A program made the translations under genes and the position numbers. From Nageia nagi (lineage: Eukaryota; Plantae; Pinophyta): 64,000 bases of DNA. The notes beneath the pieces were generated by a model. That model was given only the letters and a program-made list of their open reading frames with translations. It did not search any database and had not been told where the DNA came from. The stretch lies in NCBI GenBank assembly GCA_050084985.1, contig JBITNC010000002.1:11222001-11286000 (forward strand), written 5' to 3'. This document shows, piece by piece, positions 3,900 through 64,000 of this stretch (its first letter is position 1; every line of letters begins with the position of its first letter).

Positions 3900-4050
3900 A
3901 AAGGGCAAAAAGCCATGAATGTTGATGTCAAGTATATGTGCAAATATTGTTGAAGAAAAGATCATGACAGAAGTTGGTGTTCAAATGTGAATCCTTACAA
4001 GTATTGTGGCAAAAACAACCATGGTGATACTCTATTATTAGCTTGAGAGC
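3900..4050 (+). mobile_element. Decayed LTR-retrotransposon gag zinc-knuckle fragment
   Basis: CKYC*RKDHDRSWC and YCGKNNH are CX2CX4HX4C-like remnants. Confidence 0.35.
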
Positions 4051-6405: not shown

Positions 6406-6604
6406 TTACAGGATTGCAGGTTGTTTGTTACCATATTGTGCCAATTCCACAGATGGGTGCACGTAATCGTACACAGAGATTTCATCAAAGTCATTTGGCA
6501 AGGACTCCCAATGTAAATTTGGAACCCAATTAGCATTTTTCAAGACCTTCAGAAGCTCCTCCAGCAGAATCTGGTTGCCAACAGGACTCAAATGATAGCC
6601 ATCG
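6406..6604 (-). CDS. SGNH/GDSL esterase, last coding exon with block V catalytic Asp/His (DGYH)
   Basis: ttgcag|C GAT GGC TAT CAT, phase 2. (S)DGYHLSPVGNQILLEELLKVLKNANWVPNLHWESLPNDFDEISVYDYVHP...AIL-stop. The W.P.LHW.S.P tail resembles the CPRD49-type subfamily. Confidence 0.93.
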
Positions 6605-10013: not shown

Positions 10014-11381
10014 TGTAGAATTCCAAATACATATTCAAGTGCAATTAAACCAAAACACATAAGTATGCACCACCGTCTGGCCTAGAAGGGCAATTACAAG
10101 CATCAAACACCTCAATATGCCAAAATTAAGGTTAGGGCACCAAATACAAGCTCAATCAACATACAAATGCCAACTTTTGGCTCATACATGCATTAATGAT
10201 CAAATACACCACACCGTTGCAAATATGGACAAGTGCACAATAGAATATGAGATCCAATAGCTCATGGCTTGTATTAATGATACAGAATGGACAATGATAC
10301 AATACCAGGCCCGCACGGCTCAACGTTGGCCTCCAAGGAGCCAACTAGGGCACAATGAATGTGATCAATGCTGGCCGGACAGAAAACTTAATGGAACAAC
10401 CTCACTCCCTCAGAATCGGAATCCTCTCCACCGAAGGAGCTCTCTCCAAACCTTGGCGACCAACTGAATGGTAGGAATGTGACCTCGGTATGCCATCGGA
10501 TGGACTAAGATGTTGCACCTTAGCCGTAGAACAACAGGATCCCTCAGCCTATTAACCATCCTAGATGTTGCACCTAGGGATGTTGCTTGACGCTATGCCA
10601 AGACTTCTATCCACTGGACGGTATGAGTAATAATCAATAATCTGTATATCCAACAATGATGCTAACCTTCTTTATATAACAATTCTTGGATCTGGATCTT
10701 ACCTAGAAATCATCACTCTAACCTCCTAGTCCAACGTTAGCCTCCTAGAGGCCCTCAAATGCCCAAACATGGGGTTAAATATGCCCTAGGTATCATATAT
10801 ATGACAATGTTGTCTAGGGATGCCAATAATTACAAGATCCAATGGTTAGATATGCAACACCTCATTATTGGAGATTAATATTGCATTTACAATTATTAAT
10901 TAAATTGGAATCATATATTACAATTCAAACAAGTGACCCCCATAAAACATACTAAATCCTTTCTTAATTACCAAGCTCACACCTAAATATAACTCATAAT
11001 TAATTCCTATCCCAAGGAGTGGGACGTCACATCTCAAGCGGTCAATATGGAGATGTTTCTAGATTTCCGTGAGCGGCCACAATATGGAAGACTAGTCCAA
11101 CTAGCAAACTTCAAGAGACCATAACTCTTTCGTTTCCTGATGAAAACATGTCATGTAACCTAGCAAAACATTACCACGAGATGCCCTATCCAAAGAACAA
11201 ATCAAATCAACTCTCCAAGACTTGTGGTGAACTCTATCCTCAAATAATTCATCCTAAGCTTGGGAGGAAGTTGTCCCACTTTGGGGCTCACAATGTGGAT
11301 CCATAGGACCATTATATTCTATCCCAAGTAACTAGCAACATATAGATACATAAATAGAATATTTACAAAAGGGATGTTCCA
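10014..11381 (-). mobile_element. Solo LTR, family B copy 1 (1,368 bp)
   Basis: TG...CA ends and perfect TSD AAACA (10009-10013 / 11382-11386). Homologous to 35447-36678 and, inverted, to 56357-63579. Orientation inferred from TATA-like ttatataa near 10672. Confidence 0.8.
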
Positions 11382-14029
11382 AAACAACTGCCCATGGGTG
11401 GAGCCCTATCAGACTCCTGATCTAGACCTAGCTTAACCGACCTCCATACACCCATGCACCCTACATGCCCGCACGTGTATAGCTCTCCCTCTATAGCTAT
11501 CCATTTACAGCTATATGTTATATATTATATGCAATTAAACGAATAAGTTGTAAGCTATAACAAATGAGTTGTATTTGTTGTAAGCTATAACATATGAGCT
11601 GTAAGCTATAAGCTATGAAATTCATTTCTCAATGAACTTCCATATTTTCTGGATTTTGGCAGGATCACTCAATTTCTATGAAGGGGCAAAGTGAGTCTTG
11701 TTGCAATCAACTATATTCTTGCAAGCAAGCCCTTCCTTTTCTAGACTCCAACATTTCACTTGCTTTCAACATGGGAGAGCAATGAGTGTGGTTGACTATG
11801 ATCTCGCTAGCAAGCCCTTGATTTCACATATTGGAAACTTTCAAAGATCTAGCCAACTTCTCCGTGCTAACCAAGTAGTTTTGATATTTTCCATTGATAT
11901 CTCCCCTTCATTATCTTCTACCCCTCTCCTTGAAGGCTCCCTTGTATCCACCACATTACTATTTATTTGAATAATTCCCATCCACCTTTCCTAATCTAGG
12001 TACCAGTCTCTTTCCCTCCCATAATTGCCAAATATTATTTTTTGTCTCTTCTTAGTTCGGGCTTGGATAATCTCTATCTCTATAGAATCAGTGATCTCTC
12101 TATTCGATTCATTTCAGACAACTTCGTTCCCTAGTTTAATAAACTCTTTATTCCATCTGGGTGGGTAGGGTGGCCCTTATTATTCGGGTCAAAGGAGTAG
12201 GAAATGCTACTCACAAGGTTTGGTAATACCGTTAATGCGTATATGATCAGGAAACAAACTATCTACGTATTAACGTAAGGGCGTATGATGTGAATGGTGA
12301 ATGGACGAATCCGAGCAAATCATGACAATAGCCCTACTATTATTATTCATACTTCATGGAAGGCGACCCTCAACTCCGTCGTAACTTCCAACAATCTAAG
12401 CCATCATATAATTTTGGCTCTTGTCCTATTAATCATTGGCAATGAGCGTAAATATGTGGGTAAAAGACTCCATTTTCTTTTAGCACATGAGCAAGCCATC
12501 GTATCTTCCATGCATACAGAACATCAACAACTCCTTTGATGTAAGAAACATATCTTTCAACATGACCTTAATGCTCTCCATAACTCTCCCATGATCTTTT
12601 CATACACACTCCTACCTAGGAAACCATTTCTTTGTATATTCAATCCCATTCTTAGGTCTCACATGCCAATTCCCTCTCTAATATTCCAAAGTAACCTGCA
12701 ATTTATGTTGCCTCTTCCCATGCGAACATCTTCCAACTTCTTCCCATGTGAACATCTTCCAACTTCTTCCCAAGTGTCAAGGAGAGCTATACAAAAACTA
12801 AGTATCAACAACAAAATTTCTTGCCAACCCTTCGTTGTTTGACTTGAGGTTGATTCTTCTCTATTTAGCTTGGGAGGAAGATTTGCATCCATCTCATTCT
12901 CACATTTTGATTATGAGTCCTAATAGGACCCAAAACTTCAATGCTATGAACTCTTAAGCAGGTTCACCAAAAATCTTTTATAATCAGCAAAGGTTGTCAA
13001 TGTTAAACAATACAAAGATGAGTATCAAATTATATCATTGACTTACATACATATTGTTGTGCTCGCACAACACACCCCAAGATGCAGTATTTTGGGGACT
13101 CAATTTTTTTCAAATAGCAATGAGCAACATTGCCTGGGCATGATCAACTTACGATCGATATGGAGACCCAGAACAGCGAGATGATCAAACAATGCATGAG
13201 CATGCCTCAGAGTCATGGAAATAGTTCAGCTTAACCAGTGGCCAAGTCAGGGCTCGGTCTTGAGCAATGTCCCAAAGGACGAAGTTGTGGATTGCGACAA
13301 CAACCAGATAGTGGAGTTTTGAGCGAATGGTCATCAAGGCAGAAAAGGGGTCATTTTGGCAAGTTTGAGCCCGGAAGCAGTGGATACATTTAAGATGATG
13401 AAAATGTGAGTTTTGTACAAATTGAGCCCAGAATGTAGAGCCAAGAAGCGCGTTTTTGTCAATTTTGAGCCCGGAGACCCAGAAGATGGTCAATAGCATG
13501 GAAAAACGCATTTTGGTCAATTTTGAGTCCAACAATGGTCAGTATAGTGAAATTGTGCATTTTTGCACAATTTGGGCCCAAAAAGCTCAGAAATGACCAA
13601 AAATGCAAGTTTGATCTCAAAGTGCTCGGAAATGCCCGGAAAGGCCGGAAATGAGCGTTTTGGCATATCTTGATTCCATAATGGCCGGAAATGTAGATTT
13701 TGAGCTCAAAATGCCGGAAATGATCATTTTTTCACCATTTGAGCTCGAAAATGTCCGGAAAAGCCGAAAATGGTCAAAATTCATGCTTAGAGCCGGAAAT
13801 GTTGGAAATGCACCGTTTGGGCTTGTAAAAGATGGAGAAAGTTGGGAATGTACAGTATAGCCCAGGATGAACAAGGAAAACAAGTTTGAACGCCCTTGTG
13901 GGCCAAGATCAAGAAATGAGCGTTTTGGCCTCTAAAAAGCTTCAATTCGAGCTCCAAAAATTGAGATTTTTCCAAAATGCTCGAAATGAAAATCCGAGAG
14001 AGAGGTGTGGTGCCAAAAGACAAATTAAG

Positions 14030-15330
14030 GCCACTCTACTCTTGGAAATTTCGAAAAAAAACATGATTTTTGACCCTCGAAAAGTTAGGGGGGAGTTTTG
14101 CAAGTTTTCCCTCAGTAAATTTCGAAAAATCACCTATTCCCTTCAAAACTTGTGCCTACCTTTTGGGAAGCCCAAATTGATCCGAAATGGCAATTTTTGA
14201 GCTCGGGAGTGTGAGGATCGCGATTCTACATCAAATTAGTATTTCAAGTTCGCGATTTCGACAAGTTTTGCTCAACCGAAAGTGAGAAAAAAGGAAAATG
14301 AGCAAAAGGGCAGCCAATGAGAATGCTCCAAGATTTCCAAAATTCCCAAAAGTGTCAAAATGAAAATTTAAGAGTGAGGTAGGGTGGCAAATCAAAAATT
14401 AGGCACCTTTCCTCTTGGAATTTTCGAAATTAAGCAAATTTTGATCATCCTAAAGCTAGGCGCTGGTTTTGCCTTGATTCCCTCAAATTCCAAAATTTGA
14501 AAAATGGCCTAAATGCCTCAAAACCTGCGCCTACCCTTCTTGAGCCCCAAATTTGAAAAAAATTGGAAATTTTGACCTTCAAGGGGTATAGGATGGGATT
14601 CCACATAAGATTGATGAGAGTTTTTCAAAAAAATGAAATCTACCTCCTAAAATCATCAAATTTCGATTGACCAATGAGAGGGCTCCAAATTTTCTCAAAA
14701 TTTTTCAAAATTGGTCAAATCAAAAAAAGAAAGTCAGGTAGGGTGCAAAATTCAAAGGAGATCAAAATTGCCTCTTGCAATGTTGCAAAAAAATAAAGTT
14801 TAACCCCTCAAAAAGCTAGGCAGCAGTTTTGGCTTGTTTCCCCCATTTTCTAAATTTCCAAAAACATGCCAAAGCCTCTAAAACCTGCGCCTATCTTCCA
14901 TGCCCTCATTTTTGCTCAAAAATAAAAAAAATTGATCCTAGAAGCATTGGAAATCCAATTTTGCATCTCTTTTATGTTTCAAGTTTTTGGAAAAAATTGA
15001 TCTACTCCCTCAAAATCCCAAAATTTGGATCAGCCAATGGGAGAGGCTCCAAAATTTTCCAAGAAATTTCAAAAAATCCCAAAAACAAAATTGGAAAGAA
15101 AGGTAGGGTTTAAAATCCAAATGCAAGCATCTTTGCCTCTTGCAAATTTGCTCAAAAACTAATTTTTGCTCCCCTAGAAGGTAGGCGCTGGTTTTGCAAG
15201 TTATCCCCCATTTTTTTCATTTTTCAAAACTTGCCTAAACATACTAAAACCTTCGCCTAGCCTCCTTGGTCCCTAAAAGTGACCAAAATTGTAAATTTTC
15301 ACTTCTATGAGGTAGGTGGTGTGATTCTAC
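14030..15330 (+). repeat. Tandem array of four ~360-375 bp units, each with a 15-bp inverted-repeat pair
   Basis: Units begin ctcttg(g/c)aa at ~14039, 14412, 14772 and 15137. Arms TAGGCGCTGGTTTTG (14457-14471) and CAAAACCTGCGCCTA (14519-14533) have equivalents in the other units. CCAATG.GA..GCTCCAA and GGTAGGGT also recur. Confidence 0.85.
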
Positions 15331-15701
15331 ACCATTTTGACCTATCATTTGTGCAATTTGGCTCACACAAACTCCTAAAAACCACCTTTTTGCATCCAAA
15401 AAGAATCTAAGGGCTGAGTAAACTCAAAAAATTTAGATTTTCCTTCTAAAATCTCAAAATTCAAAATCCAAATCTGAATCATGGAGGTTGTAGAGCATTC
15501 CAACACCATCATCTTTGCTTCCAAGACCTCCCCCATTGCACCAAATCTGCTTCTTCCCCATCTAGTTGCAGGTTTTGACTTTTTTCCAAGATTTCTCATG
15601 ATTTCCAATGTTGGGTTTGAGAGAGAATAGTCCAAAGTGCAAGTGTTGAGCTCTAGAGTTGATGTGGAAGTGACATGTGGCACTTTTAACCCCCCTAGGT
15701 G

Positions 15702-15710
15702 TATAAATAC
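15702..15710 (+). promoter_or_regulatory. Candidate TATA box (TATAAATAC) for the G1 ORF
   Basis: Lies between the array and the ORF. The identical 9-mer occupies the equivalent position in G2 (62033-62041, minus). Confidence 0.5.
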
Positions 15711-16557
15711 GACCATACCCCCTCCATTTTGCTCACCTCTCATTTTTCATCCTTATGCTGCCCAAATTTTTGAGAATTTGAGAACCAAGTGAGAAAAGAA
15801 GCCATTTTTCTAGCCTTGGAGGATTTTTCAAACACTTAGCATCTTGGCCATTTACCCAAACTCCATTGAAATTCGAAATCCAAGCATCCTCCATGCACAT
15901 GAACTCCATTTTTTCCATGTTTTGAGGATTTTTTCACAAAACCCCTTTTTCAAACCCTCAAACACTTGAAAATTTATTTTTTCAGATTTCAAGTTTGATC
16001 AATTTTTTTTGGATATTATCCATGTGATCAACCTTTATTTCCAGCTAAAAACCATAAAAAAATTCATAAGATCCAAGATCTGAGTGCTCAAAATCCTCAT
16101 TTCTTAAAAAAAATTCAAAAAAATCCAAAAAAATTTCAGAAAACCCCAAAAATTGTTTCTGAAGTCCGTTTTGGCCATTTCAAAGCCTGAAACACCTTCC
16201 CCATTCATTCCCCATCCATCTAAAGGTGTCAGAACTTGATTCCAACACCATTTGCCAATTTTGCCAAATTTCACCACTTTTTCCTGTTGAAAAAGAAAAC
16301 TTTTTGAGAAAAACTTCAAAATTCTCCAATCATACTAATTTTTTGCCAAGGCATTCCCCTTTGAGGCAGCTACCTTTGTGTCATCTTAAACTCACCCAAA
16401 AGGCCTTGAAAATTGCAAATTACAACACTTTTCGATGATGGCACACTAAAACGCCAAAAAAAATCCAAATTCTTCAGAAACCCGTCTTTGCCTACCTACA
16501 AAGTGCCATAAGCTTCCCAGGACTCTTCTAACTCTTGTCCTCTTAGAAAGGGACACA

Positions 16558-19500
16558 ATGGCGTTAGTTGCTCAGAACATCAAAGACCAAAAGCAGAGAA
16601 GGCTCACAATGGACAGTCTCATCATGCTCGAACACACAACAAAGCCAGTGATGCCTGCCGCAAGAATCATAGACCAACTAAGTGAGATTGGGGACACAAA
16701 TTGTAAGTCTCTCAATCCAATAAAAACTATAATGAAAATCCAAGCATTGGATCCAGCTTCGCTAGTAAAGGACACTTTGAAAACCTCTTTCCTAGTAACA
16801 GCTTCTATGGTGCCATTTGCCACCCCCTTCCCTGAGCTATGTTACGAGTTAGGAAAGCATTGTGATATTACAAATCGAAGACTCCTCGACAAAAGGACCA
16901 AAGTAATCATGGACTTCACTGAGGAAGGAATAGAGAGCGCTTTCGCTTGGAAAAACGAAGGCCAATCATACAGCATATAGGACTCCTTAAGGTTCTACAA
17001 AAGTCTAAAGCCCCCAGCTTATTTGATTAGAGATTTGTTGGCTGATGACCGCAAGCATCTCACAGGGAGAGCCTTAGCAACGCCAAACAAAGGAGACTTC
17101 TATCCAATAGTCTCCATACTAATATTAATGCTTTCTAGGGTAACCAGACCAAAAGACGACACCAAATTCTGGTTGGAATTTGCAAGGTTTATAAAGCCAA
17201 TCAGCATTGTTAGAGGTGTAAGGTGGAGTAGAGTAATTAGCAATTGCCTAGCTCAACAACTGAAAAATGTCCAGAAGAGCAAAAAATTCTATATGAATTC
17301 CTACTTGGTTTATCTACTCCTTCAAAGTAGGGAGAGGGTGACCTCAATCGCCAATACTAAGTATCTATATGACCCCACACACCTAGTGTGGGAAAACTAC
17401 CCGTTGTTCTTTGTTCATAACAAGTGGAGCGATGGAAATTAGAAGATGATGACCAACGGTTTTGAAGGCAAAATTTACGAGGAGATCATGGGCAGAGCCA
17501 ATGTACTTAGAATATCAAATGAGGCTATTGCTGCTATCAAAGGACATGAGGACTTCTTTGCAGAAGACATAGAGTTCACCTACCTTAGGGTCTATGGATC
17601 CAAAAAAGCCCCTTATAGGCTACCCCGTTACGCAAGTGATCGCATCATCCTTATGGAATTTTCAAGACACTTGCTAAACGTACACAAGGTATGGCTAAAG
17701 AAGGCGGCGACCACTTACCAATTGCCTATCGTCATTAGGAATTATGAGTGCACCACCTGATGACAGATTGAAAATATTAAACAAGAGTTGGCGTTGTATG
17801 AATTCCTGACCGAAGTAGCTGCGAATCATTATGATCCCGATGGAGTGATTGATGCATTCTTCCAAAAGTCTTGGAGCTCCTCATATCCACACTAGTCCCT
17901 TAGTAGCATCGAGAGGTACAGGAACATTCAAGATGCCTTGCAGGTTCAACGAATTCATAAGGAGCTGAAAAAAGAACAAAAACAACATGAAGCCAAAGAA
18001 GTCACCAAGTTAAGAGCCAATGCACAAGTCACCGCACCCCCGAGCCACGAATATGTTATTCCCATAATATCCCCTTCAGTAACCCTGGCTCAAGGACAAA
18101 ACGGGCAGTATGCTACCAATAGCATCCCCGAACAAACCATTGAAACAACTGTCACATGTACGAGGAATGAAATCCTAGACCTCAGACAAGCAGGCCTGAT
18201 CTCTCAACCATTCAAACACTTGCAGAAAAAGATAAATCTCCCACAAGGTTTGAACTGGAGTGGTATGCGCCTGAATCAAAAACCCTGCACATCATCATCC
18301 AGTTCCGATAAATATGGATCGAGTGACTCGTCAGGACTGATGAAGAGATGGAATTTGCTGCAGTCATCAACACCAACATGGAGATAAACCAAGATACTGC
18401 CTTTGAGCGGGTCCACACTGATCTTTCAATAGATATCCTTAGCGAAGGCAATCCCTAAGTCGATATGATTGTAAAACAAGCAGTAGGAGCAAGTATCCCA
18501 AAACCCGCTCCTTGGAAACAGGCGTCGCAAACACCACCATCTCGGAGGACCAAAACAACATCAACTCAAAAGGGTACTTCAAGACCCAAAATGAGGAAGA
18601 AAATGAAGAACAAAGGAGAAAAAGAAGAAAAGTAGAGCATGACGTCGAGATCATCGAAGACGGAGAGATGGTTACCTTCATAAAACAACCTATGGAACCC
18701 CGCTTCGACATGGCTGCAATGATGGCCAATTTGACTTCAAATCATCCTTGCGAAGAAGATTCCGAAGATGAAAATGAGGAACTTCAGCAGATTGATACTC
18801 TTATCACCATTGTAGGAAAAGTCACCTATAAGGACAATCTCTACTCAAGGAAAAACAAGGTTGGTACCGGAAAGTTTGCCCTCACCGTCAAGACCAAAGA
18901 GGCCCCTACAGAGATTGTTGGCCCATTGGGAATGGAGCACAACATCATCACAAATGCATGGGCATTGAGGGAATCTAGTACTATTGAAGTTAGAGAACCG
19001 AGAGCTGAAGAAGATAGTGGCGAGGCAGGAAATGATCGACAAAGAAGTCAGGGCTGCTAATTTGACAGTTGAAGTCATCAAAAAGCAAGTTAACTTAAAT
19101 ACTAGAATCACCACCCTAAAACAAGGATGGACAAAGAAACTTATTGAGGCCATCAAAGCACTCCACTCAAGCATGGTAAATTTTTATATTGGTAAATTTT
19201 TATTTTGAGGAGGGGTCGCATTCTTAGGCAGAGAAAATAGACTAGTTGATCATTAGATGGAAGAATGGGTGCCCTACAATGCTAGACCTACGGAGAAGGG
19301 CCACCCATCATCCTTTCGTGCTAGATTTTTCCATAGATTGGTTCCAACTATACGATTACTTGTTCTATATCAAAGCCAAGTCCATCGACTTCATATACAC
19401 TAGAACCCAACTTAAAGCCGTCATCAGTAAACAGGCGAAGGAATTCGAATCCTAGGTACCCTTGTTTGAGGAAAACGGTAGCATTAAGGAGTATATGACA

Positions 19501-19773
19501 ATGATCCATGCCACTATCACAGAGCAGATATGTTTTGAGGATCCACACAGCCTGAAAACAGGAAAATAGATGACAGGAGGGATGAGATTGGCTGATTGGA
19601 GCAAGGAAATGGTCAAAACCAATAAGGCCATCCTGGAGCACTTACTATCAAACGAAGGAGCTCTCCAGGCAATCCACCATGCCATCAAGAACATAGAAGT
19701 GTTCATGGGAGATGATTTTGAAGCCAAAATCACCACAAACATGGAAGTCATCTTCCCACAATCACTAGAATAG
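16558..19773 (+). pseudogene. Decayed ~1,070-codon ORF of unknown function inside G1 (helical N-terminal domain, charged linker, coiled-coil C-terminus)
   Basis: ORF pieces 16558-16980, 17023-17442, 17446-17760, 17938-, 18512-, 18984-, 19246- and 19570-19773 are broken by point stops and frameshifts, and align colinearly with the G2 ORF. Confidence 0.8.
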
Positions 19774-22700
19774 AAAGGGGTCTATTTTGGCAAGTTTTTG
19801 ATACGTAAGCCAAATATTTGGCCAACTTAGTGGATTTCCACTAAGTCCAATTGTAATCTCTATTTAGCATTTTTAATTAACTTTTAATTTTGCAATTAGG
19901 TTTAGGGTTTTGAAACTCATTTCTAGGGTTTCAAAAGCCACTTTTAGGGTTTCCAAACTCTAAGTAAGAGACCAAGGGTCTTATTTTTGTAAGGACTTTA
20001 TTATGAAGTAAAACACTTCAAGCTTGAAAAGAAAACTTTTGTAAGAGAGTAGCAAATTGATGTATCCTTGCACAACTCTTTTTCAAATTAATACAAAGTG
20101 GTTAATGCAAAGACTTTAGTTTGAAACGTTTCACGTTGGTGTTATTGATTGATTCTTTTAGGGCACTCATAGTGGGTTTGTGTACTTTTGTTTTATTCCT
20201 TTAAAAGCTCACAAACGTTAGGGAAGTTATCTTTGAAAAACTTTAAAAAGTGCTTGAAGCCTACCTAGGCTTGTTGCTTGATCCTTAACATGCAAGTTGA
20301 TGGGTATTCTATGTCAAATTTCTACTTCTATGACATCTTAAATCCTTCATCCAAAACCGTAATCCATCCACATTGAAACTTTCCGTTTCTACCCATTTGA
20401 CATTCCTCCTTGCTCCTCTTTGAAGCAATTCGAACGTTAAGTTGTTTGCTTGCAAGGTTGGACGAATTGAATGAAGAGTCTTTAACCGATTTGGAAGAGA
20501 TCAACTCTTAGACACTTTCCTGTCAGTGAACCTCAACCTCATATCTGACCAAGTATCCCTTCTTTCTCCAAGGTGTCGTCCTTCACCTTTTACAATATTG
20601 CCTTTATGCTTTCTTTATGCTTTCATACCAAATATGATCGTTAAGTCCACACACAAAAGCTCCGAACAAACTCTATACATCAAAGAATAAAACATCGTTA
20701 GTTAACAGACTACATACCTCTCATTCCATTCCATTGAGACTAATTCTAAAGAGGGATACCGCAATTTTATTTATCTATCCCTATTTAAAAAACACACTTA
20801 ACAGACACACCTTACAACATAATATTGGGGCCACTAGGCGGGCTGTTTCTATAAAAGCCTTGGAGGTACACAATCCTTTTCAACCGGGGGAATTGGTAAC
20901 GCATTCCCAACTATGTTGCTTGGGATCTCCTAAGTTCCGCCTGCGATATTCAAAGTGTCCCACGTGGGAAAGAAAAGCATCCCAACACATATCTATTTAA
21001 TGAGGTTATTATTATTGGCTTTACCTCCTCATTGTATCATATTATTTGCCACATGCACAAATATGAGGACAACTTAAATCCCAAAAATAATTGTACTATC
21101 ATGTTTGGGCACACTCTTGCCAAGCTTTTTTCTGTCACAATCCATGACATAAGCTCTATATTGAGTTGAAAGAAGGTAATCTTAGAGAAAAAAGGGCAAG
21201 TGGGATTTAGGAATAATTATGATACCAATGACCTCACTTTTACTCTTCGAGCCATTATTGAGGAGGCTTGTCAATAGTTTTCTAGAGCCTTTTTGTTATT
21301 TTCTAGACTTTAAGAAGACCTTTGATACAATCCCCAAGCTCCTTTTCTAGCAATTATAGGATATTGGCATCTTCATGTTCCTTATCCTTTTAATCATGCA
21401 ACTTTATGAGGTGGTGGTTGGGATATTTTTGGACCATATTTGGATATTTTCATGGGAGGAGTCAAACAAGGGCCCCCTCTACCTCATACTTTTTGGGATT
21501 TATATTTATGAACTTCAAGATTTTATTTGCAAGCACTCTTGTACCGATGATAGTTCCTTATAGCACCATCCTCTAAGTCTTATATTGCTATGCGTTGATG
21601 ATGTGGTTCATCTTGTACAATTCCCTGAGGGCTTGCAGTGGTAATTAGATGCTTTCGCTCAATTTTATGGACTTTGCCAACCTGCAATCAACCTTAGCAA
21701 AACTAAAGTTTTGATCTTTACTATCTCCAAAAATGTTGTCTACAACTTCCAATTCCTATACCAAGGCAAGCCAATAAAAATCACGATGACCTACATGTAC
21801 CTAAGAGTTCAATTTACAAGTCAATTTGAAGCTCATTTCATAGCCATTGCTCAGTAAGGGATATGCTTCATTCATTACTTTGGAACGTCAATGTTTCTAG
21901 ATACATTATAGGAAATTCCTACAAAAATGTCTCTTTGATTATAGCACCAACCCCACAATCCTGTATGGTTACCATGTTTGAGGCATACCAACTAATCATG
22001 TATTTATCAAGTTCAAATCCTCCTCCAACATGTCATCCATTGTAAGAAGACAATTATGCAACATATTGATCAAACTAAGTTTTTTGTTGTTTAGCTTCCT
22101 CATATTAAGAGGGTCTTGAGGATTTTCATGGACTTTCATTCATAGGCTATTGCCCATTATAGAAAAAGATACCTTTCCTTACCTCTTTGCTCATCAAAGT
22201 GGGTTGTCTCCAAGAATCTATATGGACCATGTCACAGTTGTACTTGAAAGTTAGCTTTCATCATTACTTCATGGGTTCATCATTACTTCATGGGCATTTC
22301 TACAAATTAGTTTCTTCCTTTCAATACTTGCCGAAAATCCTCCTTGCATTTTGCTTGTTAGGAAGACAATCAATAAAAAGCAATCAGAGAAGATGTCTAT
22401 TAACAATACAGTCAAGTTACATGGATCTCACCACCCCAACCCCTTAGTCCCAAAATGGCTTTCTATGCTCATAATTTTTGCACAATTTTTTTACATATCA
22501 AGGATGGCATCATAACTCATCCTTAATTATACACGAATGCATGGGCTTATGACCTTTGTATCCCAATCAACCAATTTAGAATATACTCACACTTAGGTTA
22601 CATGAATCTCACAACCCCAACCCCTTAGCCCCAAAATGACTTTCTATGCCCTACGTTTTTTGCATATCAAGACTAGCATCATCATTCATCCAAATCATAC

Positions 22701-23839: not shown

Positions 23840-26800
23840 TATAATGTCCCCAATTTTGAGAAACCTTGTTACAGGCATACCTTCCATCATATGTCTTGAA
23901 TCACTGATTTGTCTTTTGGAAAGGAGGGAGAATCTTCTGCCAATGGTTTTGACAGGACATGGTTCCATCAAGAAACGAGGAAGATATAGACTTTTGAAGT
24001 TCACCCAAGAAACCATGATTCTACTATCACGGCCAGGGAAAAGTCAGCTAGGAGAAAGTTATTTTATACCAAGTCGGCTAGGAGTTTAATTATTGGTAAT
24101 TTCAAGGTAAAAGCACCTATAAAATGAGGAAAGATTCACCACTTGAAGAACATCATAATTTGACATTTGATCTCGAATCATCTCGGAGATGGGGATGGTC
24201 CCCTCTCTTCCTTCTATGGTCTAGGGCCGCTTCCTATCGTAGAAGTGGCACATTCGCAATTACATATACTTGGAGAGTTTGCACCAACATTGGAGGACCT
24301 TCTAGCCCTAGCGCTAGACCTTGGGAGCTATCTAGAGACTTGCACCAACCATTCTTGCTACTTGGAGACTTGCACCAACCATTAGGAGTCTTTGTTGTGC
24401 ATTTTTGGCAAGGTTGTCATGGATTGAGGGACAGGGGGTTAGGGATACAAGGTGACAAGTCCCCATTGACAATAGGGGACGACGACCCAATTTTAGGGAA
24501 CGCAAGGGGGACGACAAGTGCATATATACTAAAAACCCCCTAGAATTTCCAGATTTAATAAAATTAGATATTAGATATAGTTTCAATGTTTCAGGGGACG
24601 ACAAGTGCATATATACTAAAAACCCCTTAGAATTTCCAGATTTAATAAAATTAGATATTAGATATAGTTTCAATGTTTCATTCATCATTAGCATTCGTGA
24701 TTCATCAATGGGCCAATTCAAATACTTTGAAAATGAAAATTTGTAACTACTAACATACTAATAAGTAACATGTAACATGATTATAAAATGAAAATCATAA
24801 ATCTGAATCATAAATGATAAATAAGAATGAGCCATAAATATAGTCTAATAATCATAGTCAACAATGAATAATCATAATGCCATTAAGTTTGAATATGTTA
24901 AGGCCCAAAAACATAGTCTTGCATGAATATGTCAAATAAGTAAAAAATGACAAATAAGTGTAAATGACAAAATAATTGCAATGTGAATATAAAGGCATGT
25001 TTTTAGAGTTGGAGGGGTGGAGACCCTTATGGGATGCCCCCCACGCACCCCCACCCCCCTTAAGGTTTATGAAAAAAAATAAAAAAGTTGAGATTTTTTT
25101 TGTGTGCAAGATGGGGGGGGATGACCAGCCATCCCCATTTCAAAATTTTAATAGGAAATGTCCCTAGGACCTAGGAAATCATCCCGAGGATGTCCCCTCT
25201 ATACGCCCTAAAAAGGGGACGATAGGGAAACATCCCCTGAGGCATCCCCCAGTCGTAGGGACGTAAGGGAAAAGGAAACGAGGAAAAAAAGGGGGGATGC
25301 GTCCCTTGATAATATTGCTTTTTGGAGTCTTGGGCTTTGCCCTAGAACTCGTTACAGGTTTGTTATAGCCCTATACTTATTCTTGGTTATTATTCATGAT
25401 ATTTGGCTCTCATATTGCTCATTGAATGTGAATGAATGTTCTTCTACTACTGCTGTACTATTATCATTTGTTGTGCATGGGAATGTATGCGGATTAGAGT
25501 GTTTTGGATGCATATTACTGTTATGTTAAAGATCTGCAAATGTGTCTTAGTTTGGTTGGTTTCACATGTTGTATGAGCTTCTTCACTGCTATATATCAGA
25601 TCTTGTTACGGTTATAATATTTCAGTATTGAGAGCATTATTGGATGGTGAATGAGAGTTTACTATTGTGCCCTGATTTGTGAATAAATGTGAAATTGGTT
25701 GAGTAATTGTGCATGTTTAGTATAAACCCTAGAAGGGCACATTACAAGTGTGAATTCTAGACCCACTTGGGGTTATTTTTAAATATCTTAATTAATTTCT
25801 TCTAATTTAGCATTATCTTTTTACATATTATTCTAAATTGCCTCCACCTAGGTGACATCAAATCAAATTTGTGAATCCCATATAGAGCACTCCCAAGGGC
25901 TCATTGCAAATATGATGGAAGAAAGACACGAAGAATAGTCATAAGCAATATTTTTTTTTGCATCTTTTCTTCTATACTTGTGGACACATCATCTAGATTA
26001 TCAAGCATAGGAAAAGGAGCAAAAACTAGGTCAAACAAGTGTTAAGGCTAGAAAGCTTGCATTCCAACACCTAGACCCAAAACGGCCAACATTCTAGCAC
26101 CCAAGCTCAAAATGCCCAATGCTCTTGCACCTCATGCCAAAATTTCAATCTCAAACCTAGACAATCCTCACATTTGAACTAGTTCGTTCTAGATCATTTG
26201 CATATAAATTTCAATATCATCTTTGGCAAGATATCTTCAAAATCATCATTCCTAGAATAATCAGGATCAACTACAACTAGGGTTTTCCCTCCAAAAACAC
26301 AAATTGTCTGCCAACAAGCTCAAAATCCCTCACAATCTTGCATATCATCTTATCCATTTGCAAAATCATAATTGCTAGATCTCTATATTGTAGTTTAGCT
26401 ATTAATTTATTTTCCATAGTAAATCTTAATAATTGTATTTATTTTAATATATTGTTTATGAACTCGACTGTCTTTTATTGTTCAAAACCTAAGGTTTTTG
26501 GTGAACCTAATGCTAAAAATGTTTTTGACCAAAACCTTAGAAATGTGTCAATATTTTTATTATATGCAATGAACCCCACCTACTTTGAAATCTATGACCA
26601 AACCCTAAGTTTTTGGTAAGACTAAAAACCCTTATGAAAATCATCTAAAATCCAAAAGAAACATACATTATCCAATGCTTTATCAAAACCTTGGATTTAA
26701 TCTTAGGTCATCATGGCTTCATATTGAAATAATACAACTTTGATCAAACAATTTTTTCAAGAAAATGGTATGGAAGAGGAATACCTACTTTTATTTCAAC

Positions 26801-55670: not shown

Positions 55671-58599
55671 CTGATTATGATGAACAAATAATAGAATGAA
55701 TCTAGATTTCAGCATGCCGCTTGAACTTTGAAATGAAATTGAGCAAAGAGAACCACAACAGACACTTAATGCGCACGCTAATCTAGCTGATGTTGGAATA
55801 TTGTGATCATACCATGCACCAATTTGCCTGAAACACATTTTGTTGCAACATCTCTAACCCTAAAATCAAAAGCTAAAAGTTAAAAACTATACATACATGA
55901 GAAACAAAAGTAAAAAGGAGTGTAGCCATAGTGGTTATGTTACACTTTAGAGTTTACTATACTATTGTTAGTGACAGTTCCTCATATGTATTTCAATTTA
56001 ACATTTGTGTTTGAATGTTTTAATTGAAAACTATATTTTTGTACCAGCAGTAATGGATATAAAGAAAACTCACAACTGCATTTTTGTACAAATGTTTTTA
56101 TTATAGAATGGATATAGTTATGTTGGAGTTTACTGTACTATTGCTAGTGACAGTTCTTAATAATACTATCAAATATGTATTTGACATTTGTGTTTGAATG
56201 TTCTTACTTTTTAATTGAAAACAATATTTTTGTACCCTTCTATACTGTATTTTTGAAAACCTTAAACAGTATTTGTTGTAACAGCAATAATAGATATAAC
56301 AAAAACCTATATTGCACAAAGTTGCAAGGACAGGTACGACCGAGTATCAAGGGACATGTTTCTAGGATGGAGATGAGTGGCATCCCCCTTGGATAATTGT
56401 AATTAATTATAGAATCCAATGGATTCCCCCTTTTCATATAACTAATTATTTAATTGTGCTTTATTAGTTAGTACTTGGAATAGAAGACATAATGGGCCAT
56501 TGGACCCCACAGTGAACCCCAAGTGGGATGTCTCCCTCCCAAGTGTAGTTTAGTATGATTTAATGTACTTTTAGATCCCAAAATATGATTGTGGGAATCC
56601 CAAGACTTATTTAGCACTTAGAGCATGGATAGTCACTTAATGGCCCCAACGTTGAGATTGGGAGCACTTGTACACATGCGCCAACCTTGGGGAGACTCCT
56701 AGACCCCCACATTGAGCCATGACACCCACGCATGCCCCCTAGATACCCACACATGACTCCTTGACCCATGCATGCCTTCTTACACCCATGTTGAGCTTAA
56801 GCACCCACGTGGAGCATTAGGGAGGCCCAGATACCCACGTTGGGCCTAGAATGACCCCTAGGCACCATCATTGGAATTTGAGAGGTTGGGTGATAACTTT
56901 CAGGTGAGATCCAGATCCAGTTTCACCTATATTAGGCCTTGGCGCATCATTGTTGGATATATAGATTATTGATTATTACTCATACTGTCTAGTGGACAGA
57001 AGTCTTAGTGCAGCATCAGGCAACATCCCTAAGTGCAGAATCTAGTAGGGTTAACAGGCTGAGGGATCTTGTTGATCTACGGTTAAGGTGCAACATCTTA
57101 GTCCATCTAGTGGCATTCCGAGGCCGCATTACTACCATTTAGTTGGTCGCCAAGGTTTGGAAAGAGCTCCTTCGATGGAGAGGATTCAGATTCTAGGGAG
57201 TGAGGTTGTCCCATTCAGTGATCCGTCTGTCCAACATTGATCACATTCATTATGCCCTAGTTGGCTCCTTGGAGGCCAACGTTGAGCCTTGTGTGCCTAG
57301 TATTGTATCATTGTCCATTTTGTATCATTAATACAAGTCGTGGGCTATTGGATCTCATGTTTTTTTGTGCACTTGTCCATATTTGCAACATTGTGATGTA
57401 TTTGATAGTTAATGCATGTATGAGCCAGACGTTGGCATTTGTATGTTGATTGAGCTTGTATTTGGTGCCTATTGGGGGCTTTTCCTTTCCTACCCCTGCA
57501 AGTTGGCAAGTAGTATCGCAGGGCTTAGTGGAAAGACTCCAACACCCGAGTGGTAGGGTGTCACCCCTACCCGTTATGAGGATTGTTCACCTCAAAGGTT
57601 AGAAAGTGAAGGGTGCATGGGCTTACTCAGGTGCTTTGGTAGAGATGCTTTCAGCTATTACCAACTCAAATGAAATTTGTTACTCAAGGACTCGAAGGGT
57701 CTCTCTAATCCAGTGAGGTTGTTTCTCGAAGAGAAATAAAAAAATAAAAGGAGTTTGTTAGGAAAGCTGCACAAAAAATGGAAAAATAAAGAAAAGGGGT
57801 TGTTTGTGAAGAGACGGTGATATATGAATGGGGCTCTAGGGCAATGTTCTCACCGATTAGTGTGAATTTCAGAGACTTGACACGCACGGGTTTGTTCTAG
57901 GTTCCATGCATTCCCAATCCGACTTGTCAGGCAACAACAAGAATACCTCAACAAGGGAAGCTTGAAGCTAAAGCGATGGAAAGCTAGGATAGGATGGGGT
58001 AAGACTCAATGATGGAATGAAGTTCCTAGGTTAAACGACATATGCTAGTTCTCTTGGAAGACACTAATCCAAAGTGAAAACTACAAAACGTTACAACTAC
58101 ACACCACTTAGAACGTTTCGTAGGATCTACAAGCACTCTTTTGTCCACCTTTTAGAAGATTTACAAAATGAACCAAACATTCAAGATAGCATAGAGAAAT
58201 AACATACAATGACATCCATAGTCTCAAATAAGAACATGCTCACTTCAATTAATTGAGATTTATATAAAAATTGCAAAAAAAAAAAGGAAACTTGCAAGTT
58301 TGGAAGAATAGTGTAAGTAGTCCAATTTTGCACAAAATGTCTAATCCCTTACAAATGACCCGAAATGGGCTATATATAGTTTTAGAGCAACTCTAAATGT
58401 TGTCCTAACCCTAATTGCAACTTACGAGAAAATAAAATATGATCCAATCAAAATATGCCACATGGCGTTACAAGATATCTTCCAAGTTGGTGGGAGCACA
58501 TCCTCATCCATCACAAATTTGGGAATTATTAACAAATAAATTCAAGTTTCCAATCATAACTATGAAATAAAATAAAATAAAGTATAACAAGTATTGTGA

Positions 58600-61500
58600 C
58601 TAGGCGTTTGGTGGGCCGAATGCCTCTACACACCCCTCAAAGTCGTCATCTAGGAATTTGGCTGTGAGCTCCAATCCATCCAGCATCTCTGATAACCTAG
58701 GCTTGTTCTCAGCCTTGTAGCGCTCCACCTTGTCTACTATCCTCAACATGTCCTTCTCCCATGCATGAGCTTTAAGCAAATGCTCCAAGTGACTACCAGT
58801 CTGGAACGTGTTGATATCTTCAGTCATAATCAAGTTGTGAAGGAAGTGCCTCACTTCTGCCACCACCAGGTCTCTGTCTCGGATGCCTGCATCATCATCA
58901 AGGAACTTTACCTAGAACTCCATTTGCTCAAGGCAAGTGTTTGCTTTGTCATTGAGCTTCTACACATCCTTTTGCACCTCTTGGAATCGAGTGGCAATTT
59001 GATTGACCACACCCAAATAGAACCAATATTCTTTGCAGAACTTCACATCTTCTGGTCTACGATTCTGTGTCATCTCAAACTACATGATCATGTGCCACCT
59101 AGAATCCAGGATTCTGAGAAAACTAGTTCTCTCCAAAATGATATCTTTGAGCTTTTGCTCCTCGAGTGCTACCCTCTCTAGTGCTCTAACAAATCGCTGA
59201 ACTACTGCCAAGACCTCATCTATGTGCTTTTGTTTTATCGCAATCATACCTTCCTTAAGTGGCTTGATCTTCTGGAGTTCTTCGGTGGGTACCTTAGCCA
59301 ACTCCAATTCTTTTGTCAACTTCTTCTATGTAGCTAACTCCTTGAGGCCCTTAATCTCCTTATCTTTCATCATACCATCTTTGGTGATGACCTCAACATT
59401 GGAGATGATTGCATGTTTCCGACCAGCCAAACCGATAGGATCTGTATTAATGATCTAGTTAATCTGCCTAATGTCTTTTGGGCGTTGTGGGTTCTCCTTG
59501 TCAACTATTATAGTCTTAATGTGTATAGCATTATCGGCCAAGTGGACATACATCTAGGATTTTCCTGGACAGGTGGAGCTTTCTCCTACTTGGTCATCCT
59601 TTTTCCTTGCTCCAAATTCTTTTTCGACGTCCATATTGAACACATCAAGGCACTCCTCCATGTTGACACCCCACTCATCCATGGGTGATGGCTGATAAGT
59701 GTCCACAACGACCTCTTGATTGGCAAGAGTGTTCCTCTTTATTCTCTTCGAGGGTCTCTCCTCTTCCTATTCATCATGCTAATCATCTGAAGCTCGTATG
59801 GCCCAATACTGCGAAGTCCTCTTCAATTGAGCCCTCTGTATTATCTCTAAAACTAGTTCTCTGCTTCTCTCTATAGATAGCCCTTACATTGTATGCCTAC
59901 AAGTCTCCTTTAAAATCTCCACAGACACATCTTCTTGTTGCGCATCGAGGATCTCCTCATCCTGGACCATATTCTACTCCTGTTCATCCTCCGATACTCC
60001 AACCTCTCCTTCTTCTTGGTTTTCATTGGGCCTATAAGAGGGACTGGAGGCTACCAACCCAGATGGTGATACAACAGGTGACGTCGCAACTATGGTGGCT
60101 CTAGGTGGTCTAGGTGGTGGAGAAGGATCTTGATGTCTATTTCGCACACACCTTACTACCTTATCTGTGGCTACCTGCTCTAGTTCCCTTGCATCATGCT
60201 CATCCATGGTGGCCTACACTTGCCATACAACTCATTCAACTAGGTTCTTGCCACGCATCGTTGCATACTACCCAACAGGTGTCTTGTTTACAAGAGAAGA
60301 CTAGGTGACCTTGGAAGTACACTCTTGAATTCTTCTTCCTTTGTTCCGTGAGAGTCTCTTGCTAATTGTGGCTTCCACACGGTGTTGCTCATCACTTGCA
60401 TTCTTCTGTACCCTTTCTCTTATCCTCTTGATATCTACCTCATTGCTGATATTCCGGAAAGGTTCCTCGTCTGCAAGTGGCTAATGTTCATAGGGTTTCT
60501 TCCTTTCCTTCATGAAGAATGAGTGCAACCTGTGGTCCGGATCATAGTGGTTGGTGGAAGGCATCTTCTTGAAGTTGAACCTAGCCAACTCTTCTTTCAT
60601 AGCGTCCACATCTGTCCAAAATTTACATTGGTATTCTCCCACAGCGATCGATAGATTTGATGTAGTCGATTTCTTCTGCCACACCTATTCGTGTAAAACA
60701 GTCGATTGCCTCATCATCTCCATTAGCAAAATCCTGTTATTCACGAACCCTGACAATTGATAGGGTTGTACGGATGATCCATTTATACAAATATAAGAGA
60801 AGTGTTGGTGATGGAGGAAGAAATTGCAATGCTTCTTCAAAGCATCTTGGGCAGAATTGGAGATCCGTGCAACTGTGATCTCTCCCTTAAGTTCCTTATA
60901 TATCTCATATTCCCATCCATCGTTTTTCATTGTGAAACTATCCCACCTTCTCTCTAACTTCCACTTGGGATAGCACTTCCAAATGGAGTAAGTTCCTCTT
61001 TCTATCCAAGCCGTCTCACCCTGCACTATAACCCTGTATCTGCCGTGGAGCAACATGTATCCTAGGTATGAATTGAGGTAGAATTTAGGAGTTGTATCAA
61101 TGGATGACAATTGATCGGCTATTGAGTCTCTCAACACCTTGCTCCATTGGATCCTTCTGCCTCTAGCAATCTCAAGAATGAACCCAAAGAACTCCTTCCT
61201 GAATTTTGAAGCATCTTCCTTAAAGAGAACTTTGGATAATAGGAGAATCATTAACTTGACTATCGGGTAGAAGTTGGTGCGAGGAGCATTGATGAGTGCA
61301 TTTCCCTTCAACCCGTGATGTTCTTCGAACATCCAACTCTTAATAGCAATGGATGCCCTGGGAGTCTCTTGGTAGCATGCGAGTGACCTAGCTTCGCTAT
61401 ATTCATAGTCACCCTCGGAAGTCCATTGAAATGCTGCTTTAATAGCTTTAGGGAGAAAATCCATAATGATGTCTCGGAGGATTCTCTCTCCCTTCTGCCA

Positions 61501-61815
61501 ATGGTGACCGACTTCCATGCACAACTCAAGGAATGAAGCTGTGAAAGGGATGAAGGTGCAAGTGGAGAGCTCGGAGAAGAAGACAATGCCTTGCTTTAGG
61601 TCGGTGGAAGGAAGCCCACGAATGCTCTCCCTCATCTGCATGGGGTCTATGTTTTGCCAATCAGTATCTCCGATGGTTGCAAAACCATTCCTCGAGAACC
61701 TGGCCCCTTAGGGAAGGGCTTGTTGTCTCTCAAGAATGGAGATGACACAATCTTGTTTCAACCGCTCGAGGTCCTTAGCAAAATCAAGAGCCGAATTGCC
61801 CTTGAAGGGAGTCAT
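58600..61815 (-). pseudogene. Decayed ~1,070-codon ORF of unknown function inside G2, homologous to the G1 ORF
   Basis: The ATG at 61815 is in frame (one TAA) with the 318-aa ORF 61641-60685, followed by 60684-60481, 60207-, 59319- and 58866-58600. Shared motifs with G1 include IGDT, IMDF...AF.W, FYPIV, KFY(M/L)NSYL, RISN, NHYDPD and DDFE. Confidence 0.82.
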
Positions 61816-62199
61816 GGTATTTTCAATTGCGACGTGGCTCACCAAGGATGCTACATGGGTTTCCAAGTGAGAATAACCCTCACATGATGGTAGCTAACCT
61901 CCCAAATGCTTGCGCAAGCCCTAAGATGCACTAATGAAGATGTTTGGATGCAAAAATCTGCAATTTCCTGCTATTTTGGCGCAAGGGTAGAAGAGCAAGT
62001 TTTAAAATTGGGAAAATGAGGTCCCAAAGCTTGTATTTATAGCCAATTTGTCTCCCACCTTGCCCTAGTTGGCTAGGGTTTCTATCAAACCTCATCATAG
62101 CCCACTATTTGGTCGACCTCGAGATGTGTGCCGATTCGGAAACTCATGCCAAGCCTCTTGTGTCCAGACGTTGGGGTCCAGAAGATCATCCAGGATCGA

Positions 62200-63163
62200 C
62201 ACATGGAAAAAAAAAGATAGAAAGGTGACTTTTTAAACCATGTGCCAGCCCTAGGAGGGAGTATGCTCCCAACGTTGAGTCTTCTGGTCATGTGCTTGTT
62301 TGCTTTGATCTTCCAACTCACCCATTAACCTGATTTCTCTCAATTTTTGGTCTTCTAGTCGGCTGAATTTATCAATTTTGATGCTTCATTTCAAACTAGG
62401 CAACCTGTAGGCTTGGTGCATGCTTTCAAAAAGTCAAGATTGTGACTTTTTGAGGCATGCACCATGCTTGCCTGCCCCTAAAGCTTGGTTGCATGGTTCA
62501 AAAAGACAAGATTTTGTCTTTTTGAAACATGCACTAGCCTCCTATTGGCCTATTTTGCGAATTTTGATCTTCAAATGCTCATGCCTTAGCCGAATTTTCA
62601 TGCTTCTCGAATCCTAAAGGCGTCTTGGGCTTGGCACATGCCTCAAAAAGTCAAGAATTTGTCTTTTGAGGTCATGCACTAGCCCCCCTGTATATGCTTG
62701 AGTTGGTCTTGAGTTCCACAGGTCCATGCCTTGTCAAATTTTCACTTTTTGTCAAACTGAAAGCCCTTCCAAGCTTGGCACATGGTTCAAAAAGAGAAGA
62801 TTTTGTCTTTTTGAGGCATGCGCTAGCCTCTTGGGTGACTTAGATTCTTTTTCTGGCATCAAAACTTGCTCAACTTGTCCTCTTAGCCAAATCACATGGT
62901 TCAAAGAGACAAGATTTTGTCTTTTTGAAGCATGCGCCAACCTCCTGGTGTCTTTGCCTTAGGATTATTGTGCCCTCTTCTCGTCCAGAATGCTTCCTGT
63001 CTCTAGCGCATGCTCAGGAAAGTCAAGGTTTTGTCTCCTGGAGGCATGTGCTAGGTTTGTAAGTGCACAAACTTCATCTTCAAACCTTCCCTCTTGCCTA
63101 GATGGCCCCTTGGCCCAGTCACATGGTTCAAAAAGACAAGATTCTATCTTTTTGAAGCATGCG
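62200..63163. repeat. Array of eight ~44-bp palindromic repeats with variable spacers
   Basis: Consensus CATGGTTCAAAAAGACAAGATTTTGTCTTTTTGAAGCATG, with copies at 62200, 62417, 62490, 62635, 62779, 62893, 63007 and 63120. Confidence 0.9.
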
Positions 63164-64000
63164 CCAACCCTTGGGAATGCCTAGTTTGACTTGATCAGCT
63201 TCCGGCTTGTCTTGGACTTCCTAATTCACCTAGATTCGACTTTTACTCTTCTCGGACTTAGCCATTCTAAGGAATTTGCAATTTCTATTTTATCATGGCT
63301 AACTCTAATGAAGGGAGAGGCTATGAACTATGAGTAGTCCATGAATCAAGGTCTTGGTGACACAACATGGGGGGTGAAGACGACGACAAAACGAAGTATA
63401 TACAAAGGTGTGCTTGACGGTCCCCAAAATCACATGTATTTAAGTCACAACAGTGCCCTAACTCTAACGTTGGCATATTGAGGTGTTTGATGATTGTAAT
63501 TGCCCTTCTAGGCGAGACGGTGGTGCATACTTGTGTGTTTTGTTTTAATTGCACTTTAATTTGTATTTGGGATTCAACAGGACGACGGGATATGGGGGTA
63601 CGTTCCAAGGACATGCACAACAGGATATGTCTAAAATATAATAAATATATATATATAAATATTGTTTTTTTTTTATTTTTAAATATTTTTATGAATTTTT
63701 AATTAATCATTAAAATGCAAATGGTTTGAAATTAATAATTGAATCATAATGAAACCACAATCAACATGAAACAAAAAAATTGTTGTTATGAAATGAAAAT
63801 GTGTCCTTACTTCTATCTAAAGGTAGCCTTGGTTTTTAGTTTTTAGTTTTTTACTTGCAAGTATGTATAAAGTTGTTTTACTGTTCTTTTAGTTTTTAAC
63901 ATTTTATTTCTTACATGTTATTATGACAGTCACAAAACGGTAACAGTCTTCTACTAATCTTTTTTTACTGTAAAATACTAAAAGAACAGTAAAAAAATAG

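Follow-up and report, generated by a model that had tools for sequence, protein, structure and literature searches.

Two diverged gene-carrying elements with 5-bp target-site duplications in the Nageia nagi genome: candidate giant solo long terminal repeats

A 64,000-nt stretch of the Nageia nagi genome (assembly GCA_050084985.1, contig JBITNC010000002.1, positions 11,222,001 to 11,286,000 of the forward strand; hereafter, the window) carries two elements, G1 (13055..20987, + strand) and G2 (57470..63452, − strand), each of which contains one long open reading frame (ORF), is bounded by a 5-bp target-site duplication (TSD), and lacks a pair of long terminal repeats (LTRs). What kind of mobile element leaves such units behind? 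TG...CA ends with a 5-bp TSD are the integrase signature of LTR retrotransposons, and solo LTRs arise by LTR-LTR recombination. The original prediction for this locus was that both elements are solo LTRs with a whole gene in U3, an interpretation that fits everything we tested and remains the best, probable explanation, although no primer binding site (PBS) or polypurine tract (PPT) appeared at any junction seen.

For comparison, we used two related loci, L001 and L002, from a metagenome scan (52 candidate stretches), together with contigs of public sequencing runs (X1 to X6) mapped to window positions 12000–22000, i.e., to G1 and its flanks; runs X2 and X4 represent one sample.

Element Boundaries and Repetition

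The predicted coordinates and perfect TSDs were borne out in both elements. G1 (7,933 bp) reads CATAT/TGTTGTG...CCCAACA/CATAT, with its TSDs at 13050..13054 and 20988..20992 (+ strand), and G2 (5,983 bp) is flanked by GTGCC on both sides (57465..57469 on the 3′ side and 63453..63457 on the 5′ side of the element, + strand). A 5-bp TSD match is expected by chance at ~0.0014 per junction pair. The predicted TG...CA ends are present in G1 but not in G2, which ends in ...CCCAATA (i.e., TG...TA); the L001 and L002 elements likewise start with TG, and the L002 element ends with CA. The repeat that hosts G2 has a paralog at 10014–10725 that matches both G2 flanks and contains GTGCC only once, indicating a true empty site for G2. 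Three copies of this repeat lie in the window (10014–10725, 35535–36670, and the interrupted 56384–57469 plus 63453–63579; 69–90% alike), a further copy of the family occurs at L001:2529–3065, and the G2 insertion point adjoins a CCCTAA motif.

In the X1 run, G1 was hundreds-fold deeper than its flanks (0–3 in the flanks, 292–2,471 in the interior, and 4,839–5,658 in the terminal bins; summed contig depth is not equivalent to copy number), and the X2, X4, and X5 profiles had the same shape. Depth dropped at 20987, the 3′ end of G1, in four of four runs (X1, X2, X3, and X6), and the left junction, resolved in the depth data to 334 bp only, is crossed by a 323-nt X1 contig with seven differences. 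G1 is clearly a repeat with these boundaries and occurs in many copies. The terminal bins (13002–13335 and 20350–21017) lie several-fold above most of the interior, representing either conserved ends common to diverged subfamilies or short derivatives.

Shared Layout and Divergence

As predicted, G1 and G2 share a common order of parts, comprising an array, the TATA box TATAAATAC, a 3.2-kb ORF, a second TATA-like region, and a tail of ~1 kb. G1 (all features on the + strand) opens with a terminal double dyad, TGTTGTG-N4-CACAACA then CCCCAA..TTGGGG (13055..13097), followed by short degenerate repeats with units of 22–27 nt (families D4, D7, and D8; 13340..13930) and an array of four ~365-bp direct repeats with GGTAGG/CCTACC motif pairs (13951..15331). 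The unit number of this array differs between copies, as read-contig joints skip 366–388 and 1103–1137 nt. The first TATA box (15702..15710) is the presumed promoter of the ORF (16558..19773), downstream of which lie TAGGGTTT repeats and a second promoter-like region (19903..19992) and, ~90 nt from the 3′ end, a hairpin with a GTAAC centre (20888..20908). In G2 (− strand), the corresponding parts are an array of eight 41-bp dyads with the core AAGACAAGATTTTGTCTT, common to L001 and L002 (62211..63172), the first TATA box TATAAATAC (62033..62041), the ORF (58600..61815), a second promoter-like region with TTAGGG, CTATATATAG, and CATTTGTAAGG (58345..58420), and, at ~95 nt from its 3′ terminus, a hairpin centred on GTGAC (57553..57572).

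Several of these parts differ from how they were first described. Each element does contain an array, but the two arrays are unrelated rather than both being dyad repeats (direct repeats with inverted motif pairs in G1, dyads in G2), and the TTAGGG-rich tract proved slight, with a 21-bp unit repeated 2.8 times in G1 and one TTAGGG at the corresponding place in G2. G1 itself has no clear second TATA; in many related contigs, two extra letters at 19960 create a TATA box (accounting for the entire depth in X1 and for 87%, 49%, and 24% of that in X2, X4, and X5, respectively) at the position equivalent to CTATATATAG...TTTGTAAGG of G2.

Two terminal structures recur among the elements. The 5′ double dyad (TGTTGTG-N4-7-CACAACA, CCCCAA..TTGGGG) is present in G1, L001, and L002 (z = −3.35, −3.38, and −5.37, respectively) and lost in G2 (z = +0.76). 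Hairpins centred on GT[AG]AC lie close to the 3′ terminus of G1 (92 nt), G2 (95 nt), and the L002 element (60 nt), with a stem that differs per family; of the 113 pentamers of this kind in the rest of the window, one reached six of eight stem pairs. In folding energy, none of these hairpins is significant taken singly (z between −0.9 and −1.6), and their support is the common position.

The two elements had been assigned to a single family with homologous termini. Likeness above background was indeed found at both ends, where the 5′ 60 nt were equalled by 2 and the 3′ 120 nt by none of 300 random window stretches, and in the second-TATA region (1 of 300). There is no wider DNA similarity, the shared DNA being confined to terminal and promoter motifs, and blastn of G1 against G2 returned chance-level words only, which contradicts the single-family claim. 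The encoded proteins are 34% identical over 480 aa. G1 and G2 belong to separate, diverged families with one layout. Neither shows an LTR pair (the first and last 2.5 kb share two matches of 24–28 nt in G1 and none in G2), and no gag, reverse transcriptase, integrase, or transposase was detected, with no Pfam family at E ≤ 0.05 in the 12 frames of G1 and G2 (stops read as X); both absences agree with the original prediction.

The related loci repeat this arrangement. L001 carries a G2-type copy starting with TGTTGTG at 8191 and colinear with G2 over a single alignment of 3,148 bp, which runs from the terminus through the array and TATA box into the ORF, where the L001 contig stops. L002 carries a second G2-type 5′ half (2849–6640) and, at positions 1–2817, the 3′ half of a third family, which ends 31 bp before the G2-type copy. 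The third-family C-terminal protein matches that of G2 (score 144 vs. 38 ± 7, 0 of 300 shuffles), as does its second-TATA region (0 of 300). The fixed layout is seen in three full or 5′ copies and one matching 3′ half, and is kept between families with saturated synonymous divergence (dS). Since the layout is fixed across families, the ORF is not a nested insertion; this alternative is ruled out by the colinear ORF in L001 and L002 and by unbroken depth across the ORF, and no ORF-skipping joint occurs among the 15 of 79 joints listed.

The G2-type copy in L002 is cut near 6646, where an unrelated sequence starting with TGTGAC begins. We considered the L002 neighbours as an LTR pair, which is unsupported, given that the 31-bp spacer has no PBS or PPT and the halves do not overlap; clustering of these families is possible. 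In L001, ~3 kb upstream of the G2-type copy, exon pieces seen by eye at 4300–5030 are presumably photolyase/cryptochrome gene-like, and the copy may lie inside a long intron.

The ORF and Its Predicted Product

The predicted ~3.2 kb ORF was found in both elements as 3,216 bp from ATG to TAG, but in neither is it intact. The G2 ORF occupies one frame with 17 in-frame stops in 1,072 codons (14 TAG, 2 TAA, and 1 TGA), and that of G1 has five stops in its first 588 codons and, as read by eye, about four frame changes downstream. The idea that every solo LTR leaves a potentially expressible gene does not hold for G1 and G2, both of which have decayed. Differences among G1 reads are dominated by C>T/G>A and A>G/T>C changes, and 14 of the 17 G2 stops are TAG, a bias that would be expected for the decay of methylated DNA.

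The aligned codons nonetheless indicate purifying selection on the ORF. Between G2 and L001, the ratio of nonsynonymous to synonymous divergence (dN/dS) is 0.118 over 385 codons (dS 1.42), from which it follows that selection kept the gene during the spread of the families; in the other three pairs, synonymous sites are saturated (dN 0.18–0.66). The G2 protein comprises an N-terminal globular part (~480 aa), an acidic/Pro-Ser linker, and a helical, coiled-coil-like C-terminus. Hydropathy reaches a maximum of 1.1–1.5 with no transmembrane stretch, on which ground an Env-like membrane protein was rejected.

A near-length protein search returned 10 homologs among 821 candidates, and a representative protein search returned 66 at E ≤ 0.001. 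Among 10 clusters looked up, a species name was attached to 2, both being Taxus chinensis hypothetical proteins (8 sequences). A profile search of the window with the ORF found G1 and G2 only, and no relatives were found in viral contigs and prokaryote genomes. Longer protein forms were also not found (558–2,000 aa; 855–2,440 aa with alignment A3), a result that speaks weakly against a gag-pol fusion.

A fold model was computed for the stop-free N-terminal domain of G2 (60934..61641, − strand), the confident part of which is mostly helical. Its top structural match was VANC21 (9lnk_A), a weak match covering 191 of 236 residues. VANC are anti-silencing proteins of VANDAL (MULE) transposons, for which a VANC21-DNA structure (9lnk) and the DUF1985/PMD fold have been described (PMC5735166, PMC13547354, bioRxiv 2024.09.27.615353). 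The G1/G2 gene is similar to VANC in that it adjoins family-specific tandem repeat arrays and has a coiled-coil region. The modelled VANC/PMD-like fold is a weak new lead on function, for which the first description of the locus had offered no proposal, and we suggest only tentatively that the ORF protein may bind the array of its own family and counter DNA-methylation silencing as VANC does.

Other searches gave no further support for a function. Foldseek against PDB and BFVD returned no match at E ≤ 0.001 (an absence that is uninformative about the fold), a PDB sequence search gave a single hit (E 0.35), and a structure-atlas search with the distant homolog P0035 gave no usable named hit. 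The Pfam families PF09331 and PF10536 had no match in the three window proteins, 25 homologs, or 12 frames, and Pfam PMD, Transposase_28, and ATHILA gave no hit; sub-cutoff Pfam hits (TPX2, DUF7405, and others) were dismissed as noise.

Origin of the Elements

We know of no route besides LTR retrotransposition and recombination that copies a TG...CA unit with 5-bp TSDs and, for this reason, favour the solo-LTR variants, which taken together are quite probable. The variant that we prefer, and consider moderately likely, is that G1 and G2 are solo LTRs of giant, probably Tat-like Ty3/gypsy elements with an autonomous parent and an accessory gene (a predicted VANC/PMD-like DNA-binding regulator) in U3, a placement that we infer from sequence motifs. 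In such an element, the second TATA would start the genomic RNA, making the ~1-kb tail R-U5 and everything upstream U3, and reverse transcription would copy U3, gene included, into both LTRs. Lying at the end of the genomic RNA, the ORF would obtain a separate mRNA from the first TATA, ending at the LTR poly(A) site, and such very long LTRs would recombine often to yield solos. The cassette may have originated as the Tat-type region between pol and the 3′ LTR (a repeat array and an extra ORF with its own promoter), absorbed into U3 via an upstream shift of the plus-strand primer. In the most speculative step, a young solo would by itself constitute a complete trans-acting regulator until it decayed. 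A solo-LTR origin needs a high solo:intact ratio; in the available parts of the sources, this ratio is ~1:9 in Picea and 2.8:1 in Cupressus (bioRxiv 2026.07.23.736688), and (unequal) recombination is reported to affect longer LTRs more often (PMC7251063, which cites Du et al. 2012).

As expected of a solo LTR, no PBS, PPT, or internal region is attached to G1 or G2 in the flanks read (near zero depth for those of G1). A PBS was present in none of the three 3′ junctions read and a PPT in none of the four 5′ junctions read, nor was a Tat-lineage PBS (tRNA-Arg, Asp, Asn, or His) found at the junctions read. The G1 3′ end is covered by 110, 19, 27, and 10 contigs in X1, X2, X3, and X6, with loose ends exactly after 20987 in 19, 5, 12, and 6, respectively. 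Agreement among these loose ends (0.41, 0.53, 0.44, and 0.46) is at the level of simulated random flanks (0.40, 0.52, 0.43, and 0.49), implying that most sampled G1 3′ ends run into unrelated DNA, and no TGG consensus follows 20987 among the 21 of 43 loose-end rows listed. A continuation common to 6 of the 19 contigs, or to 4 of the 12, is ruled out by this test, which is compatible with sharing by at most 3 of 19, while the PBS test is weak because a shared junction would collapse into few short contigs.

Two further observations concern the sequence beyond the G1 end. One X1 contig (record 7; depth 20.9) extends 51 nt beyond it and may represent a shared continuation. Three contigs of X1 and one of X2 agree in their first ~12 letters past the end, which begin with CACCC, also the 5 bp preceding the L001 element start; this reflects either target preference or a shared continuation.

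The rival that survives best, though we regard it as unlikely, is a stand-alone class with integrase-type ends and no LTR pair or internal region, copied and inserted in trans by partner machinery (e.g., through circular or tandem intermediates), with its own gene regulating or protecting the unit. The junctions without PBS or PPT and the random-looking 3′ loose ends in all four runs are in keeping with it, both window copies are TSD-bounded singles, the conserved 5′ dyads and near-3′ hairpin could serve as cis signals, and the sole gene is an ORF under purifying selection. However, we know of no replication route by which such a unit could be regenerated in the absence of an LTR pair, and the junction test carries little weight: the contigs it sampled were of low depth and close to G1, it is compatible with as many as 3 of 19 continuations being shared, and one deep contig may be shared. 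In addition, no head-to-tail joint connecting the two ends of G1 is present among the 15 of 79 joints listed. Improbable, too, is the fuller form, in which G1 and G2 would be the first members of a conifer class of 6–8 kb units without an LTR pair, carrying a family-specific repeat array and a single array-binding, VANC-like anti-silencing gene, and spread by the enzymes of another element to hundreds or thousands of copies.

Returning to solo LTRs, a parent that was itself non-autonomous, its internal region being very short or non-coding (giant TRIM- or LARD-like), would explain the solo excess and would leave the same termini and TSDs and scarce PBS/PPT junctions, again in line with the greater recombination of longer LTRs in the available part of PMC7251063. 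No pair was seen, however, and the only end-to-start neighbours (the L002 halves, 31 bp apart) do not overlap and have neither PBS nor PPT in their spacer, leaving this parent a poor candidate. Less probable again are solo LTRs in the reverse orientation or with other boundaries, in which the gene would be antisense to gag-pol or within R/U5 and the first TATA would be the LTR promoter. The extra ORFs of known gymnosperm TatIII and of most Ogre and Retand elements are antisense, the second TATA of G2 is palindromic, and its L002 version reads TATAAATA on the opposite strand. On the ORF strand of G1 and G2, however, TTTGTAAGG and AATTAAT motifs come after the second TATA, and we take these motifs to be like plant LTR R regions; a 4-kb R or U5 would require read-through of the gene's own poly(A) site.

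A DNA transposon with the ORF as an unrecognised transposase would match the single ORF, precise ends, TSD, missing LTR pair, and a best fold match to a protein of a MULE DNA transposon, but is very improbable given that inverted repeats at the termini do not extend past TGTTG/CAACA, that the 12 frames contain neither a Pfam transposase nor a Pfam integrase, that the confident model part is mostly helical, that VANC21 is an accessory factor and not a transposase, and that the terminal inverted repeats and integrase-like transposase of DDE (Ginger2/TDD-like) elements were not found in G1 and G2.

Comparison with Known Systems

In mouse mammary tumour virus (MMTV), sag is an ORF in U3 of the retroviral LTR, duplicated in both LTRs and left in solos. 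MMTV differs in being an animal retrovirus with a small LTR and an unrelated membrane protein, whereas the G1/G2 protein has no transmembrane stretch. TRIM, LARD, and TR-GAG elements have no pol, are mobilised in trans, and share TG...CA ends and a 5-bp TSD; unlike the G1/G2 units, they possess two LTRs, a PBS, and a PPT.

The remaining comparisons draw on sources available in part. The OTA/Tat Ty3/gypsy elements (TatII, TatIII, Ogre, and Retand/Grande; PMC6317226, PMC4408406, PMC7264820, PMC11963269) are similar to G1 and G2 in their 5-bp TSD and large non-coding regions with arrays, and their extra ORFs encode a comparable globular-plus-coiled-coil accessory protein, with PMD in gymnosperm lineage III; the Grande ORF has its own promoter (PMC11963269 reference list). 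Tat extra ORFs are, however, internal, between the LTR and gag or pol, whereas the G1/G2 ORF lies inside a TSD-bounded TG...CA unit, and no pol linked to G1 or G2 was found that would place them in a lineage. Reviews also describe plant extra ORFs as internal (PMC7264820, PMC11963269). In PMC6317226, extra ORFs are placed 5′ or 3′ of the polyprotein, LTRs reach about 5 kb, and the survey limit for LTRs was 6,000 bp, so that an 8-kb LTR would have been excluded by design. Rice Retrosat2/RIRE3/RIRE8 (PMC3485330) resemble G1 and G2 in having LTRs >3 kb and a fast-evolving ORF0, with solos exceeding complete elements 2.6:1; they differ in that the Retrosat2 ORF0 is described as upstream of gag-pol, with no placement in the LTR in the available part, and the LTRs are less than half the size of G1/G2. 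Such units go unmentioned in the available parts of two conifer genome papers (PMC13477047, PMC11539532), and no plant LTR-borne gene of this kind was found in the full-text literature, with subscription papers lying mostly outside, and Repbase outside, the search.

If G1 and G2 are solo LTRs, they would be larger than any LTR in the available part of the plant reference survey (PMC6317226), and an abundant class would be absent from conifer repeat catalogues and uncounted in solo-to-intact ratios. Recombination between the LTRs would then leave an accessory gene behind instead of silencing the element. If the protein acts as VANC does, sequence-specific anti-silencing, which has been demonstrated to date in eudicot DNA transposons, would reach gymnosperm retroelements and provide one route for their persistence in heavily methylated giant genomes, and the role of plant retrotransposon extra ORFs, long open, could be tested directly by comparing several natural protein-array pairs. 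Should paired copies not exist, the units would represent a new kind of mobile element.

Other Features of the Window

Several further features were noted by eye. These include a PPR-type ORF fragment at 33487–34846 (196 aa at 34013–34603, with a 274-bp tandem duplication), which looks pseudogenised; an open frame at 46053–47114 that is transposase-like and presumably of the hAT/DUF659 type, with related fragments near 45150–45490; and, as a candidate only, decayed copia-like gag/zinc-knuckle/integrase-start fragments in translation at 43900–45600. A different LTR-like repeat at 23842–25488, 83–88% alike to L001:6376–7108, is interrupted by ~900 bp that include an 87-bp tandem duplication at 24507–24680. 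Finally, a direct duplication of ~870 bp (957–1832 and 2216–3083) shows 81% identity.

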